A program made the translations under genes and the position numbers. Positions 3,884 to 21,055 of a stretch of 64,000 nucleotides of DNA are shown here, piece after piece; position 1 is the stretch's first letter; the number at the start of each line of letters is the position of its first letter. The notes under the pieces were generated by a model that did not search any database, had not been told where the DNA came from, and worked only from the letters and a program-made list of their open reading frames with translations. This DNA comes from Candidatus Cloacimonadales bacterium (GTDB taxonomy: Bacteria; Cloacimonadota; Cloacimonadia; Cloacimonadales; JAFGVF01): assembly GCA_963677495.2 (NCBI GenBank), contig CAXXOU010000002.1, positions 164,070 to 228,069 of the forward strand, in the 5' to 3' direction.

Positions 3884-3988
3884 CGGTCACCATTACGACC
3901 AACGGGAGTTCGGGGAATTGCGACTTAGAAGTACGAAATGTATAAGCTCCGCAATTCCCCAAGCTCGCAAACTCGCACTGGTGACTGC
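3884..3988 (-). repeat. Family-2 ~105-nt double-stem element, copy A
   Basis: The reverse complement aligns with 12921-13028 and 13069-13176. The inner stem is GGGGAATTGCG/CGCAATTCCCC. It overlaps the left half of the 19-bp inverted-repeat element at 3894-4102. Confidence 0.8.
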
Positions 3989-4102: not shown

Positions 4103-4608
4103 TGGACTCTAGCTTTTGTGTTTATGATACAAGCCCTTTTGTGTTTCTGATACCAGCCCTTGGGACTGAAACTGAATAGCTATGGGCGCAAGCCCATAGA
4201 ATGGTAAAGCCAAATACCCCAGCCCTTTATGGGCTGAATGTTAAACGCTAATCCTGAATGAAAGGGTTACCTGTGAATAGTCCCGAATACGATTAGAGGT
4301 TCTTGTATACAATAAGTCACTACCCCAATCGGTTGCATTTGGATTGGTGTTGTAGATTGCTGTTTAAAACATATTCGACCCCGTTGGTGTCGTCTGTTTG
4401 TTGGTATTCTCCTAACCATGTATTCCATGGCTACTCACATTTTATCCCGCTGGGATAATGACCACCTACTCGTACTCCTTTTAGTCGAATGGACTCGTGC
4501 TTAGGATATCGGAATATAAACCCCCAAAAAAACATTTGGCACTAGCAACAATTACCACTATAATGTAAAACAAGAACTAAACATGGTATGTAAACACGAA
4601 GATTCTTA

Positions 4609-12813: not shown

Positions 12814-12920
12814 TTTAAAAGCTGGACTCATAGCGACCATCGGGAGTTAGAGTCATAGCGAAATTAGCAATTCCCCGCTTTGCATCGTACTCGTAAACAC
12901 GTATGGACACAAGCTATAGT

Positions 12921-13213
12921 AGCAGTCATCAGTGCGAGTTTACGAGCTTGAGGAAATGCGGTCTTAACACTTGTTGGTACTTCGAAGTCGCATTTCCCCA
13001 AACTCCTTTCAGTCGTACTGGTGACTGCTTCGATAATTCACTAAAGTTATCCGAGCGACCCAGAAGGTAGCAGTCATCAGTGCGAGTTTACGAGCTTGAG
13101 GAAATGCGGTCTTAACACTTGTTGGTACTTCGAAGTCGCATTTCCCCAAACTCCTTTCAGTCGTACTGGTGACTGCGTCGTTAATCCACTAAAGTTGTCC
13201 GAGCGACCCGTTC
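12921..13213 (+). repeat. Tandem duplication (2 x 148 bp) of the Family-2 structured element
   Basis: AGCAGTCATCAGTGCGAGTTTACGAGCTTGAGGAAATGCGG... starts at both 12921 and 13069. The first ~107 nt are near-identical and the remainder is more diverged. Confidence 0.9.
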
Positions 13214-16152: not shown

Positions 16153-16225
16153 AATAAAAGCTTTACACAATAAAATTCCATTAACAGAATGCCGTCATAT
16201 CCGATGTATAATTAAAGGAGGTATT

Positions 16226-16742
16226 ATGCAAAAGGGTAGCAAAGCCGGCTTAGCCGGAAGGAGATTTCTTTCTTGGTTGATTGATTTACTGCTGTTCTCT
16301 GTGATTGCTATTTTCACCGGAATCTACTTCACACAGGAAAGCACAATGATAAGTATTGGTATGGGATACATTGGTAAGATTACTAATATTATCTTGCTAC
16401 TCGGTATTGCATTACCGGCAGTATATCTATTTATGAGTTGGGTTTTCTTTGGAGCCACAATCGGTATGAAAGCTCTTGGATTAAGAGTTAAGTCGATTCA
16501 CACTAATAAAAAGCTCAATCCGGTGTTGCAATTCTAAGATTCTTAATGTGGATTGTAAACTGGTTCTCTTTCCGATTGGATTCCTCTGGATGCTTTGTGA
16601 CTCAAGAGGGCAGACCTTTGCTGATAAGCTATCAAGTACTGTGATTGTTCGGAAGGGTGACTATAAAGAGGAAGTACCTCCTTCTTCTGAACGAGATCGA
16701 AAGGTTTGGTTAGTAGGAGCTATCTTATCCGTTTTGGTATGA
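16226..16742 (+). pseudogene. RDD-family membrane protein, frame broken near 16530-16550
   Basis: An AGGAGG SD precedes the ATG at 16226 (MQKGSKAGLAGRRFLSWLIDLLLF...). The RDD C-terminal motif (DSRGQTFADKLSSTVIV) lies in a different frame (16548-16742). Confidence 0.6.
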
Positions 16743-18057
16743 TTTTAGCCTCATCAACTATCTTTCTATTCTTGTATCAACCACGCTTGAATCCAGGAAT
16801 TAGTAACACCCTGTATTCCTATCTACCCGGTGATAACCCCGAAGAAAACAGTTTCTATGAACTCTATGGTTTCACTGCTCCCCAAGGCATAGATCCTTAT
16901 GATGCCGGATTGCAGAAAGTGGTTAATGCTAATAAAACTTTACTTGATTATAATGCAACCAATGTTCCTATTTCTGATCCTAGATTGAAGAAGCTGGTTA
17001 GTACATTTAAAGATACTCTCCGCTCGGATATACACTATGTTAAAGATAGAGCAGAGGGACAGAGTAATATAGATTTAATCAAATCGAAGCGCAAAGAGCT
17101 TAGACCAATTATTGAAAAGTATCAATACATGAAAGAGCGCTACTCGAGAATCAGGGAGTACAAATATTTCAAACAAAGATTATTCCACATACAGCCTCCC
17201 CATACTGGCGTGGTTCTCTGTTAGTTGCCTATCAAAGGTTGGTTTCTGCTGAGTTCGTGCTTGAATATCTCTATGGAGATCGTAATAAAGCTCTTGAACT
17301 TATGCAACTAAGCTATGATGTGAATCGAAATCTTTTCAAAGTTTGTGATGACATGTTGATAAAGTATATGACCGCTTATAATCTTGGGAATGTAGAAGAG
17401 ATAATAAGTGAGCTGATGAGCTATGAAAAGCCATGTGACCAGCGTTTGTTAAACTTTGTTAGCAATGTGCAAGGCTTCGATAGGGAGGATGTTAATCTTC
17501 GTAAACCTCGAGAGACAGGATTTAACTATACCCTCATTTCAACCTTGGCTGATAGAATGAATAACAGACAGATTTTAGAGGATTATGTTGTCACTCCTAA
17601 AGAGATTACTCAATCCAGTAGCTTCATGTTTAAATCAAACGATTTTGCCAACCAGTTCTATGCTTTCAATGAATATATAATGGATTACTCAGAGAAATCC
17701 TTCCCTGAGATTTATGCTGAGAAAGATAATCGATTCAGTTATAATCCAACCTCAGTATTGAATGTATTTAATACACTGGGAGTAGCTCATACAATCACTG
17801 TAATTCATGTTGAGAAGATGGCAAAAGACTATCTGTTTAGGTATATTCATAACTATTTGGGCACCAAGCTGCTAAAAGCAAAAGCTGATATTATCAGAGA
17901 GAATGTTCCTAAAGATAAGATTGAAGATTTCCTCCAAAACGATGTGGTTAAGTATGGAGTAGAGTACAAGGACGAAACTTTCAAGTATGATTCTGTAAAC
18001 CACAAGATCTACTTTGACCAACTCAATAAAGATGAGAGTTACGGGTTTAAACTGTAG
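16706..18057 (+). pseudogene. Hypothetical protein in two frames (16706-17224 and ~17190-18057), possibly continuous with the RDD gene
   Basis: The second frame stays open upstream of 17239 (PHTASPYWRGSLLVAYQRLVSAEF...), which implies a single indel near 17175-17195. I recognise no family. Confidence 0.45.
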
Positions 18058-18081
18058 GTATACATCACAAATGTATAGATG

Positions 18082-18112
18082 AAGCCTGGTGCCTTGCATC
18101 AGGCTTTTTATT
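18082..18112 (+). terminator. Rho-independent terminator
   Basis: A stem (AAGCCTG at 18082-18088, CAGGCTT at 18100-18106) is followed by TTTTATT. Confidence 0.7.
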
Positions 18113-19733
18113 GTAGTGCGAGTGTCCCCACTTGCACATAGCTCGATAGAGCTATCACTGGGAAGCCAATCGAGCTCAGAAACTAGTATTGACTTGTATT
18201 TCCCAAAATAAGAACTACTTTTCAACGTATGATTTCTAAGTATCAGTCAGAGGAAGCTGCCGACTGTGTCGGCACAGCAACTCAGGAGAGTTGCAGTACA
18301 TTCGTAGTGTAAGTGTCCCCACTTGCACATAGCTCGATAGAGCTATAATCGGGAAACTTATCGTGTACTGGAAGTAGTATTGACATGTATAATCACGAAA
18401 CTTAATTCTACGTTCTAAACGTATGATTTCTAAGTTCCAGTCAGAGGAAACTGCCGACTGTGTCGGCACAGCAACTCAGGAGAGTTGCAGTACATTTGTA
18501 GTGCGAGTGTCCCCACTTGCACATAGCTCGATAGAGCTATAATCGGGAAACTTATCGTGTACTGGAAGTAGTATTGACATGTATAATCACGAAACATAAT
18601 TCTACGTTCTAAACGTATGATTTCTAAGTTCCAGTCAGAGGAAGCTGCCGACTGTGTCGGCACAGCAACTCAGGAGAGTTGCAGTACATTCGTAGTGTAA
18701 GTGTCCCCACTTGCACATAGCTCGATAGAGCTATAATCGGGAAACTTATCGTGTACTGGAAGTAGTATTGACATGTATAATCACGTAACATAATTCTACG
18801 TTCTAAACGTATGATTTCTAAGTTCCAGTCAGAGGAAGCTGCCGACTGTGTCGGCACAGCAACTCAGGAGAGTTGCAGTACATTTGTAGTGCGAGTGTCC
18901 CCACTTGCACATAGCTCGATAGAGCTATAATCGGGAAACTTATCGTGTACTGGAAGTAGTATTGACATGTATAATCACGAAACATAATTCTACGTTCTAA
19001 ACGTATGATTTCTAAGTTCCAGTCAGAGGAAGCTGCCGACTGTGTCGGCACAGCAACTCAGGAGAGTTGCAGTACATTTGTAGTGCGAGTGTCCCCACTT
19101 GCACATAGCTCGATAGAGCTATAATCGGGAAACTTATCGTGTACTGGAAGTAGTATTGACATGTATAATCACGAAACATAATTCTACGTTCTAAACGTAT
19201 GATTTCTAAGTTCCAGTCAGAGGAAGCTGCCGACTGTGTCGGCACAGCAACTCAGGAGAGTTGCAGTACATTTGTAGTGCGAGTGTCCCCACTTGCACAT
19301 AGCTCGATAGAGCTATAATCGGGAAACTTATCGTGTACTGGAAGTAGTATTGACATGTATAATCACGAAACTTAATTCTACGTTCTAAACGTATGATTTC
19401 TAAGTTCCAGTCAGAGGAAGCTGCCGACTGTGTCGGCACAGCAACTCAGGAGAGTTGCAGTACATTTGTAGTGCGAGTGTCCCCACTTGCACATAGCTCG
19501 ATAGAGCTATAATAGGGAAACTTATCGTGTACTGGAAGTAGTATTGACATGTATAATCACGAAACATAATTCTACGTTCTAAACGTATGATTTCTAAGTT
19601 CCAGTCAGAGGAAACTGCCGACTGTGTCGGCACAGCAACTCAGGAGAGTTGCAGTACATTCGTAGTGCAAGTGTCACCACTTGCACATAGCTCGAAGAGC
19701 TATAATCGGGAGACTTATTGTGCTAAGTAGTAG
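18112..19733 (+). repeat. 194-bp tandem repeat array: a divergent partial unit, 7 full units and a truncated last unit (candidate array of promoter-equipped structured ncRNA genes)
   Basis: TTGACATGTATAATCACG recurs at 18380, 18574, 18768, 18962, 19156, 19350 and 19544, an exact 194-bp step. The units differ at only a few positions. See the findings for the hairpin analysis. Confidence 0.95.
18768..18796 (+). promoter_or_regulatory. Representative intra-unit promoter-like element, TTGACA-17 nt-TAATTC (repeats every 194 bp)
   Basis: It has the same architecture as putative promoters upstream of real genes in this window: TTGACA-17-TAATTA at 36191, TTGACA-17-TTATTA at 42126 and TTGACA-17-ATTATA at 50247. 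Confidence 0.45.
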
Positions 19734-19793
19734 TCACCAGTACGACCAACAGGAGTTTGGAAAAATGCGGAATTGACTTTCTGAAGTGCTACT
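19734..19793 (-). repeat. Partial Family-2 / inverted-repeat-arm element abutting the end of the tandem array
   Basis: GTCACCAGTACGACCAACAGGAGTTTGGAAAAATGCGGAATTGAC... aligns with 3887-3945 in the same orientation. Confidence 0.65.
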
Positions 19794-20065
19794 ATATCCT
19801 GATGGAATAACCATATAATATCCATGGTGCTTTAGCCCATGGATAAGAATTATCACCAAAACCCTACCCCAACAGGACTGAATTTTCATTCCCAATTCTA
19901 TCCCATTAATCCCTCATTCCTCTATCATAATTCCCGACAGAAAACTGTCTCATTCCAATGAGTCTCTTGAGGCTCACTAGGGCAAAAGGATAAGAGACTG
20001 ACAATAAACCGGGCAGAAATCGGTTGCTCTTGAACCCGAATTATGATGGAGCAATGATAGAGAAA

Positions 20066-20139
20066 TATAGCTCAAAGCCTATAGCCTATAGCCTATAGCT
20101 CAAAGCTTATAGTCCTTATTTCAGCTATAGGCTATAGGT
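20066..20139. repeat. 7-bp periodic TATAGCN repeats followed by an inverted copy (AGCTATAGGCTATAGG)
   Basis: The sequence reads TATAGCT CAAAGCC TATAGCC TATAGCC TATAGCT CAAAGCT TATAGTC ... AGCTATAGGCTATAGG. This forms a 16-bp inverted repeat with a loop of about 22 nt. Confidence 0.8.
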
Positions 20140-20345
20140 TGTTAGCTTTTAACTACAAATTCACTCCCCGTTAGAAACACGTTACAAGAAATGGGGATTG
20201 GATAGGATCTGGATGAAGAATTGATATACTCCCCAATTGTAGTAAGATAGTGCATTATTTATGACTACATATGATGTATTTGCTCCGTTATTGCTCTGCT
20301 ACAATATTGAACAAAAACGAATCCATTTCCAATCGCTCTCCTAGC

Positions 20346-20373
20346 AGACACCTATTGAATTCAATAGGTGTCT
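20346..20373. repeat. Perfect 28-bp palindrome AGACACCTATTGAA|TTCAATAGGTGTCT
   Basis: Read directly from the sequence. It is centred on GAATTC and lies in an ORF-free region. Confidence 0.9.
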
Positions 20374-20463
20374 AATAGGAAACTGCAAAGGAAATGATAA
20401 CTGAGGGTTGAGAATTGTGACAGAGCAGTGCGGAAGGGATTCTAGTATTAGGAACACCGTTTC

Positions 20464-20487
20464 CCACCACTTGAAAGTGGTGGTTTT
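20464..20487 (+). terminator. Plus-strand intrinsic terminator inside the ORF-free region
   Basis: The hairpin CCACCACT-tgaa-AGTGGTGG is followed by TTTT. The minus-strand version has no T-run. Confidence 0.6.
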
Positions 20488-20708
20488 GGGGAGCATATAT
20501 TCAACCCGTTTCGGGATCGAAGGTTCTTCTTAGGGATTCATGACAATGCATTTCATGAATGGCTACTCACATATAATTCCGTTCAACCATCAAAATATTA
20601 CGGCACGACAAGTGGGATTATTATTAAGGTTAATTAAGTGAACAGGGTTGTTCGCTATACATTTCCGGGTTTAACAAATAAAAGCCTATTATCTGAACTT
20701 ATCCGAGT

Positions 20709-20998
20709 AATCTACGGCTATTTAGCATGTTACAGTCAGTCAGTGGCAGTACATTCGTAGTGCGAGTGTCCTCACTTGCACATAGCTCGATAGAGCTATC
20801 ACTGGGAAGCCAATCGTGCCCAGAAGCTAGTATTGACATGTATTGCCAAAATTAGTTTTACTTTCCAGCGTATGATTTCTAAGTTTCAGTCAGTGGATAG
20901 AAGCTGACGACTGTGTCGTCACAGCATCAGTCTTCGCTGTAAGCTTCGCCCGACAAGACTAAAGAGAGTTGCAGTACAAAAAGCGAACCAGCATTGAC
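20709..20998 (+). repeat. Diverged copy (~1.5 units) of the 194-bp repeat, directly upstream of the PHP/EndoQ-like operon
   Basis: The 20757-20885 segment aligns with the divergent leading unit at 18113-18227, including ATCACTGGGAAGCCAATCG and TTGACA at 20833. The next half-unit (20870-20998) carries a compensated hairpin 1 and a 32-bp insertion homologous to 7616-7649. Confidence 0.85.
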
Positions 20999-21055
20999 AC
21001 AGTCAATGCACTCCATAATAGGATAATCATTGACTAATATAGACAGTTCATCTGA

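Follow-up and report, generated by a model that had tools for sequence, protein, structure and literature searches.

A 3-kb ORF-free island in a Cloacimonadales genome, probably an accumulation zone of REP/BIME-type and other small palindromic repeats

The DNA analyzed here (the window) is a stretch of 64,000 nucleotides, C2:164070-228069, from a Candidatus Cloacimonadales bacterium whose 37 % GC genome comprises 3.41 Mb in 4 contigs; our subject is window positions 18058-21055, which we call the island. The adenylosuccinate synthetase of this genome has 83 % identity to its counterpart from a metagenome-assembled genome labelled Candidatus Cloacimonadales, with Cloacimonadota as the next best matches. 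We consider it probable that the island is a non-coding accumulation zone for small palindromic repeats, among them repeats of the type of repetitive extragenic palindromes (REPs), bacterial interspersed mosaic elements (BIMEs) and REP doublets forming hairpins (REPINs), situated where synteny breaks down, with a decayed gene on one side and a PHP operon on the other, and consisting mainly of a tandem 194-bp array that matches the unit of a REP-associated tyrosine transposase (RAYT) minus the gene. As such, the island is a known kind of bacterial repeat (REP/BIME/REPIN with RAYT) of unusually large size. Carrying this reading are the repeat nature and copy numbers of its parts, their intergenic distribution, the GTAG head and compensatory stem changes of the 194-bp element, and a RAYT-like gene embedded at a syntenic position in a unit of the same type.

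ORF content and repeat load of the island

The plus strand of the island contains open reading frames (ORFs) of 40-47 aa only, while the minus strand harbors seven 77-aa frames generated by the repeat together with a few ORFs of 46-53 aa; none of these small ORFs had a match in Pfam. The 77-aa frames are not coding, because 194 bp, the repeat period, is not divisible by 3 and members of the family are separated by indels of 1, 2 and 4 nt. In a genome-wide ranking of gaps between ORFs of ≥80 aa in any frame, the longest gap was found at window 18226-21055 (2830 bp); at a cut-off of ≥100 aa, just three gaps in the genome exceed that of the island, and these are rRNA operons since all carry 16S/23S landmark motifs. 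These three rRNA operons aside, the island is the largest ORF-free stretch of the 3.4-Mb genome, so that a preliminary description of this DNA, in which about 3 kb without a credible ORF had been taken as an extreme island, is borne out by both the ORF scan and the gap ranking.

About 2.6 of the 3.0 kb is dispersed repeat DNA. Besides the 8-unit 194-bp array, the island contains a diverged unit standing alone and members of at least seven other repeat families, which leaves only ~130 bp of unique sequence. As judged by the genome copy-number profile, copy number is 0 up to about 18100, rises to 40-65 other copies at 18100-19720, varies between 1 and 23 other copies at 19720-20250 and reaches about 30-55 other copies at 20740-20930; almost all of the remainder was assigned to dispersed families by iterated nhmmer searches. 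In the genome as a whole, 31 % of ORF-free bases lie in repeats with ≥5 other copies, and the island is the single largest cluster of this kind. A repeat load of about a third of the ORF-free DNA is heavy for the small genome of an anaerobe. The suggestion that the island might be a graveyard of small mobile modules has thus held up well, given that all but ~130 bp belongs to multi-copy families, several of which adjoin Y1/RAYT genes.

The 194-bp element and its probable RAYT gene

Tandem Repeats Finder (TRF) placed the array at 18111-19722 with a period of 194, 8.3 copies and 96 % matches; it comprises 8 full units followed by a partial unit with the left end only (19662-19726). The first unit is 86 % identical and the seven inner units are 97-100 % identical, which argues that array growth is recent. 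Each unit, designated U, consists in order of a GTAG-REP hairpin and hairpin 2, a variable middle that keeps TAGTATTGAC, and hairpin 4 with an inverted REP' ending in GCAGTAC. With nhmmer, the family yielded 96 full or fragmentary copies; they are distributed over about 45 loci, all of them intergenic, and many form arrays of 2-6 units. Modules of U also occur separately in the genome. Motif matches number 70 for the left type and 54 for the right type. The family is present in three genomes of the same genus and absent from 37 genomes of other genera, and it accordingly shows the high copy number, extragenic location and genus specificity that characterize REPs. Genes flanking the U loci are arranged in tandem at 23, convergently at 13 and divergently at 9 loci; at the tandem loci, U runs in the same direction as the genes in 8 and opposite in 15, with no tie to the genes. 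A CRISPR-like array was considered and rejected, as the 'spacer' part is identical across array units and homologous between loci.

An alignment of 43 distinct full-length copies revealed conservation of the left end, TAGTATTGAC and the right end, whereas the middle splits into several unrelated subfamilies. According to the published definition, a REP combines a GT[A/G]G head with an imperfect palindrome, and RAYT genes are flanked by inverted REPs (PMC2817692). The left end of U starts GTAG-TGCRAGTG-TCCC-CACTTGCA and hence bears a GT[AG]G head 0-2 nt 5' of an imperfect palindrome; the GTAG head is found at 43/45 distinct left ends regardless of upstream sequence. We place the start of U at GTAG because the two bases ahead of AGTGC are GT whatever precedes the copy. 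The right end finishes ...GCAGTACA, which on the bottom strand reads GTAC-TGCGACTC-TCCT-GAGTTGC. When the left end was compared with the reverse-complemented right end, 17 of 25 positions were identical, a level reached by 0/20000 shuffles, and the differences within the stems are compensatory. Each REP is accompanied by a second hairpin (ATAGCTC/GAGCTAT on the left, TGCCGAC/GTCGGCA on the right). Among distinct variants, 95.9 % of cells in the left stem and 91.5 % of those in the right stem are paired, and double-sided changes number 13 on the left and 12 on the right vs. ~3 in shuffles, with 0/500 shuffles attaining the observed counts; this shuffle control is indicative only, as the aligned U copies are related to one another. 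The palindrome at both ends of U is therefore one kept by compensatory changes, as in REPs.

Both end hairpins have a G.T wobble at the same stem position on opposite strands: 17/38 left ends have G.T on the top strand, and 28/37 right ends have A.C there, which reads as G.T on the bottom strand. This arrangement fits inverted DNA hairpins that are each read on the head-bearing strand, rather than one folded transcript. Each 194-bp unit combines two related, mutually inverted REP hairpins into a head-outward ('HH') heterodimer, and in the island 8 units of [REP> ... <REP'] follow one another head-to-tail at a 194-bp period, as in BIME-2. At C4:1323654-1324157, one full unit is followed by four tandem copies of just the 63-nt right-end module, and end modules can therefore amplify on their own. 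A genome-wide count of GTAG heads at intergenic hairpins with perfect stems of ≥7 bp gave 27 vs. 6.2 expected, with AAAA and ATAG being commoner; we have not used this count as evidence.

Within the genome, 14 Pfam Y1_Tnp matches were found, nearly all directly abutting multi-copy repeats; they comprise IS200-like genes, a five-member 147-aa family and several RAYT-like genes with NHxH and Y-x-x-x-NP motifs. One RAYT-like gene, C4:1452082-1452663 (194 aa), which lies on a different contig from the island, is embedded in a unit of the 194-bp type; model positions 1-107 (the left-end module) immediately precede it, positions 97-191 (the right-end module) immediately follow it and tandem U arrays extend on both sides, so that over C4:1451947-1452755 the gene is flanked by its left-end REP and the inverted right-end REP, with arrays beyond. 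The RAYT gene sits exactly at the variable middle of the gene-less units, which makes for a tidy natural example bearing on how REP doublets may have originated. It is single copy, its next paralog being about 30 % identical. Its product matches the NCBIfam 'REP-associated tyrosine transposase' model NF047646 (E 2.9e-21, 75.9 bits), has no match to the IS200 model, carries the HUH motif NHVH and the tyrosine motif YLKNNP, and has as its best match in the PDB the E. coli TnpA-REP structure 4ER8 (E 1.6e-3), over the helix with the catalytic tyrosine only. In the sister genome G001, an ortholog that is 71 % identical lies inside an array with a syntenic downstream flank; there, a left-end REP is found upstream, only the terminal GCAGTACA of the right end follows the gene, and array units are present on both sides. 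The RAYT is thus single copy in the present genome and, as judged from the two species compared, vertically inherited. TTGACT-N18-TATNTT, just ahead of the ATG in both species, is its putative promoter. Given that the TTGAC box of the units aligns with this putative -35, the promoter-like element shared by all units is best interpreted as a remnant of the RAYT promoter. Mobility and RAYT activity in this genome are predictions from sequence.

Other families are associated with Y1 genes too. The halves of one Family-2 element bracket a second RAYT-like gene (C3:76613-77188), and the genome has at least two REPIN-RAYT pairs. Ten copies of the repeat family S2 are found no more than 1 kb from two of the 147-aa Y1 genes, C1:783126-783569 and C2:97516-97959, at distances down to 15-16 bp, and two copies of S7 flank the IS200-like gene C4:22109-22561 in inverted orientation. 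The five 147-aa paralogs score as IS200-type; Y1 loci also include C3:348091-348537, C4:910234-910677 and C4:675782-676279, and a further Y1 gene, C2:154527-155045, sits ~9 kb upstream of the window. More distant homologs of the RAYT in other genera of the family (33-41 % identity; L118 and L119 of genus g2, and L121) have repeated hairpins of their own at their flanks, distinct from the hairpins found in this genus (GTGG-TGCGGGCTGGAATCCCGCA; GTAG-TATTTTCTTGCAGAATGCAAGATAATA three times, in a noisy scan). Across the family, the sequences suggest that REP-RAYT pairs may co-diverge.

Several observations sit less comfortably with a REP-RAYT reading: 1) the head of the right end is GTAC, deviating from GT[AG]G at position 4; 2) at 194 bp, with four to five hairpins and ~140 nt between the REPs, the unit is far larger than classical REP doublets; 3) the RAYT score of 75.9 bits falls just below the NCBIfam cut-off of 80; 4) the 15:8 ratio of opposite to same orientation relative to neighboring genes is uninformative; and 5) no copy of S3/S6, S4, S5 or S8 lies directly beside a Y1 gene, and no cognate enzyme was identified for these families.

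From the known biochemistry of the family we infer how such an island could arise. The Y1 (HUH/tyrosine) enzyme of each family would bind its tagged hairpin as single-stranded DNA, for instance at the replication fork, and would then cut and rejoin the hairpin, thereby seeding copies beside existing hairpins; the array might subsequently grow by unequal recombination, slippage or RAYT-mediated head-to-tail joining. A role for the host is possible, by way of terminator-like hairpins, stabilization of mRNA or binding of the gyrase/IHF type as in E. coli BIMEs. We also entertain, tentatively and with rather more doubt than conviction, that the 194-bp unit is an internally deleted REPtron, which has kept the left flank of the RAYT (with the relic of the TTGAC box) and its right flank and has lost the ORF. 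If so, the RAYT and two REP ends once moved as one unit resembling an insertion sequence (IS), after which gene-less doublets dispersed and the enzyme itself joined them head-to-tail at the GTAC-NNN-GTAG junction; the system would then represent a living intermediate between elements of the IS200/IS605 type with miniature derivatives and domesticated REPIN-RAYT systems.

Modules, setting and alternative explanations

The modules of the island are listed in Table 1. The array, Family-2 fragment, hairpins, palindrome, terminator-like hairpin and diverged unit named in the preliminary description are all present as it had them, including the hairpins at about 19936 and 19961-19999.

Table 1. Modules of the island and its borders in window coordinates, with genome copy numbers.
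Feature	Position	Strand	Description	Copies
Intrinsic terminator of upstream frameshifted gene	18081..18107	+	Left border of island; 12-bp stem then T run	
Tandem BIME-2-like array of 194-bp 'U' element	18113..19726	+	TRF and nhmmer units	
Family-2 fragment (S1)	19727..19792	+	Double-foot GTAG...CTAC	58-91 (nhmmer)
S2	19795..19875		Hairpin TCCATGG-N9-CCATGGA at 19822-19844	25-35
S3	19895..20066		~170-nt long-hairpin element; ~20-bp terminal arms TCATTCCTCTATCATAATTC / GAATTATGATGGAGCAATGA; inverted repeat I2, DNA fold	
S4	20066..20155		Hairpin of heptad (TATAGCC/TATAGCT) repeats	28-43
S5	20141..20261	+		16 matches first round, 29 second
S6	20261..20460		Second S3-family long-hairpin element; perfect 28-bp palindrome 20346-20373 at centre	
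S7	20462..20495	+	Hairpin CCACCACTT-GAA-AGTGGTGG then TT(C/T)TGGGG	10
S8	20496..20599	+	ATATTCRACCC..GGGTCG hairpin ... ATGGCTACTCACAT	21-25
Unique segment (~130 bp)	20600..20732		Sole apparently unique part of island	
Right-end stub, then solo diverged U unit	20733-20756, 20757-20979	+		
33-nt mini-element	20927-20959		Interrupts right-end REP' hairpin of solo U unit	
Upstream region of PHP-domain gene	20989..21055	+	Collinearity with sister species starts here	

Family-2 gave 32 nhmmer matches in the first round and 91 in the second, and S8 rose from 9 to 21-25. S4 has a TRF period of 14 and forms inverted repeat I1 with 37-nt arms. The DNA fold of S6 is -27 kcal/mol (z -4.1), and S6 matches on both strands at about 105 loci; since the terminal arms (~20 bp) are common to S3 and S6 and the S3 model matches S6 loci, we read the two as one long-hairpin family, with about 105-125 copies together. 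S5 usually adjoins an S3/S6 element, and the two may therefore form one larger composite element; most copies of S5 carry 2-3 direct CCCGTTAGCT decamers ahead of a conserved ...GTTAC..GATGGGAATTGGATT segment. The solo U unit corresponds to the nhmmer match C2:184828-185048 (80 % identity). The unique segment 20600-20732 has no other copy in the genome and no match in the genus or in Rfam. Elsewhere in the window, a 148-bp tandem at 12919-13209 and an inverted copy at 3884-3988 also belong to Family-2, which is read as a double-foot (GTAG...CTAC) REPIN-like element.

The mini-element in the solo unit is a 32-33-nt sequence, TCAGTCTTCGCTnAAAGCTACGCCCnGACArG, with at least 13 occurrences, including C4:994017, C3:463554, C4:418998 and C1:947524. 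It nearly always lies between short complementary arms as a hairpin loop, with a stem that varies from copy to copy, and it interrupts the right-end REP hairpin in three U units, in one of them with its orientation reversed. Two readings offer themselves, namely a tiny insertion aimed at hairpin loops or a conserved loop whose stems are free to vary. As to the proposal that short stretches of the island recur in the gap at 4110-4450, S8 has a visibly related copy at ~4365-4450 and the Family-2 piece matches 3886-3922, but S8 and its copy have no BLAST match at E<0.01, so the proposal stands only in part; S8 and this relative match the same G001 repeats, and of the several S8 copies in G001, two lie inside the syntenic island.

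A different explanation is that the island encodes structured non-coding RNAs (ncRNAs), namely tandem small RNA genes with one promoter per 194-bp unit and further RNAs ending at the hairpin at 20464, the latter favored by the preliminary description. We judge this improbable. It is true that each unit keeps TAGTATTGAC(A/T) with a possible weak -10, that units fold better than shuffles (z -3.6) and that the stem of the left end tolerates G.U on the plus strand; however, the reverse strand folds equally well (z -3.8), the right-end REP has A.C mismatches on the plus strand in the same 28/37 variants that show G.T only on the minus strand, the orientation of U is not tied to neighboring genes, and the unit contains no T-run terminator. 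The TTGAC motif is explained as the promoter relic described above, with the -10 being read as decayed in the units of the window. Regarding the hairpin at 20464-20487, it is followed by TTTTGGGG, including TTTT, and was not called by our terminator scan because it has only 4 T; but this hairpin is S7, which has 10 copies in the genome and borders a transposase gene. Its stem exists in three covarying versions, its TTCTGGGG tail is conserved, and S7 is 97-100 % conserved over 27-30 nt in the sister genomes G001 and G002. Promoter and terminator scans of the island gave 15 matches vs. 9.3 ± 2.8 in shuffled sequence, which is barely above expectation, and the sole clear terminator belongs to the upstream gene. 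At the gathering score, Rfam yielded tRNA-Phe only in the whole window; at E≤5, the island yielded far sub-threshold hairpin look-alikes only, mostly eukaryotic miRNA precursors, on palindromes. Known RNA families were rejected on this basis, the Rfam scan of the whole 3 kb having given no family match beyond chance-level hairpins, and the claim of additional ncRNAs found no positive support.

Could the size of the island, and mainly its 8-copy array, be an assembly artefact of a repeat-rich long-read metagenome bin? Near-identical units (97-100 %) are indeed the hardest case for assemblers, but arrays of 2-6 units exist at many other loci and in the closed 1-contig genome G001, unit variants follow one another along the array in an ordered alternation, and without the inner units the region would still be >1.5 kb of ORF-less repeats. 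We therefore regard an artefact as very unlikely. In short-read bins of the genus, contigs are likely to break at arrays of this kind; the two fragmented sister genomes have 430-450 contigs.

Comparison with G001 defined the setting of the island. Collinearity by blastn starts at 20989 and runs through PHP, a second PHP-like gene, an FAD protein and tRNA-Phe; at the same place, G001 has an ORF-poor island of 1.77 kb with the same families in a different arrangement and unrelated genes upstream. Comparative alignment with a relative, as the preliminary description had advised, thus identified conserved flanking DNA from 20989 onward, while the island itself is differently arranged in G001. The upstream gene (window 16214-18018), a homolog of ~627-aa paralogs (27 % and 22 % identity), is split between two frames near 17170-17200, by way of either a pseudogene or a sequencing frameshift. 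On account of the break in collinearity and the frameshifted upstream gene, we surmise that the island occupies a junction prone to rearrangement and under relaxed selection, at which repeats build up and turn over. The same frameshift and breakpoint might be taken to mean that the island is a wreck of protein-coding genes degraded by frameshifts, a view we find scarcely credible given that ~2.6 of 3.0 kb is multi-copy non-coding repeats with only ~130 bp otherwise, that the small ORFs lack Pfam matches, and that tblastx against the syntenic G001 region, bearing on the conserved coding frame that the preliminary description had named as telling against a non-coding island, matched one repeat module only. 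A phage or plasmid origin was rejected as well: blastn of the island against a phage collection gave no match, and the neighborhood is that of an ordinary chromosome, with tRNA-Phe and housekeeping genes for HydE/G-like radical SAM proteins, a GTPase, an EamA transporter, PHP-domain proteins and an FAD protein. Most probably, the largest 'empty' stretch in the genome is neither a missed gene nor a new class of RNA, and annotators can mask it.

Comparison with known repeat systems

Among REPs, dimers with outward-facing heads, dimers reiterated in tandem and frequent G.T pairs are on record, and GTAG repeats have been listed in Proteobacteria, Cyanobacteria, Chloroflexi and the Planctomycetes-Verrucomicrobia-Chlamydiae (PVC) group (PMC3733652). 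Subclass 2.4 of TnpA-REP proteins, of about 194 aa with NH[IFV]H, YIxNNP and 'double-foot' REPs, ranges over Bacteroidetes, Cyanobacteria and other scattered phyla (PMC6006769). Cloacimonadota are not mentioned in these two surveys, and no REP, RAYT or REPIN report for the phylum was among the top-ranked full-text literature matches. The range of REP/RAYT systems would hence extend to Cloacimonadota, a phylum absent from the REP surveys (PMC3733652, PMC6006769).

The E. coli BIME-2/rayT (yafM, TnpA-REP) REPtron (Nunvar 2010, PMC2817692; Messing 2012, PMC3479197), in which rayT lies between BIME-2 arrays of tandem BIME-1-like doublets (PMC2817692), resembles the U system in its GTAG head 5' of an imperfect palindrome, in two REP variants in alternating orientation (Y and Z2 in E. 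coli) with doublets reiterated in tandem, and in a single-copy RAYT gene located between arrays of its own, strictly extragenic REPs. In contrast to the E. coli BIME of ~70-100 bp, U is 194 bp long with an extra hairpin beside each REP and a variable middle of ~90 nt; in addition, its second REP has a GTAC head, its stems are AT-richer in a host of 37 % GC, the phylum is Cloacimonadota, and detectable sequence identity of the protein with 4ER8 is confined to the surroundings of the catalytic tyrosine. In the REPIN-RAYT systems of Pseudomonas fluorescens (Bertels & Rainey 2011, PMC3116915; PMC5581495), too, inverted REP doublets are what replicates, each family has a single-copy RAYT that is inherited vertically, one genome holds several REPIN-RAYT pairs, and there are tandem clusters. 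However, the two REPs of U have different stems and therefore should not pair into one long hairpin, the spacing is larger, and the unit retains homology to the upstream and downstream flanks of the RAYT gene itself.

By length and motifs (194 aa, NHVH, Y-x-x-N-N-P), the RAYT can be likened to TnpA-REP subclass 2.4/2.7 (Quentin et al. 2018, PMC6006769), and the Family-2 module, with GTAG at one end and CTAC at the other, to the 'double foot' of that subclass, which has 'long' and 'double-foot' REPs; the RAYT differs in having S, not Q, after the conserved W, and no REP insertion was seen inside the RAYT gene. With IS200/IS605 elements and their gene-less derivatives, the palindrome-associated transposable elements (PATEs), the U system shares a Y1 HUH transposase, subterminal hairpins at both ends, the lack of long terminal inverted repeats and of target duplication, and gene-less miniatures that keep both ends. 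Unlike IS200/IS605, the protein matches the RAYT model and not the IS200 model, and there is no tnpB. Being single copy and located in synteny in the two species, the cognate gene behaves like a domesticated RAYT and unlike an IS.

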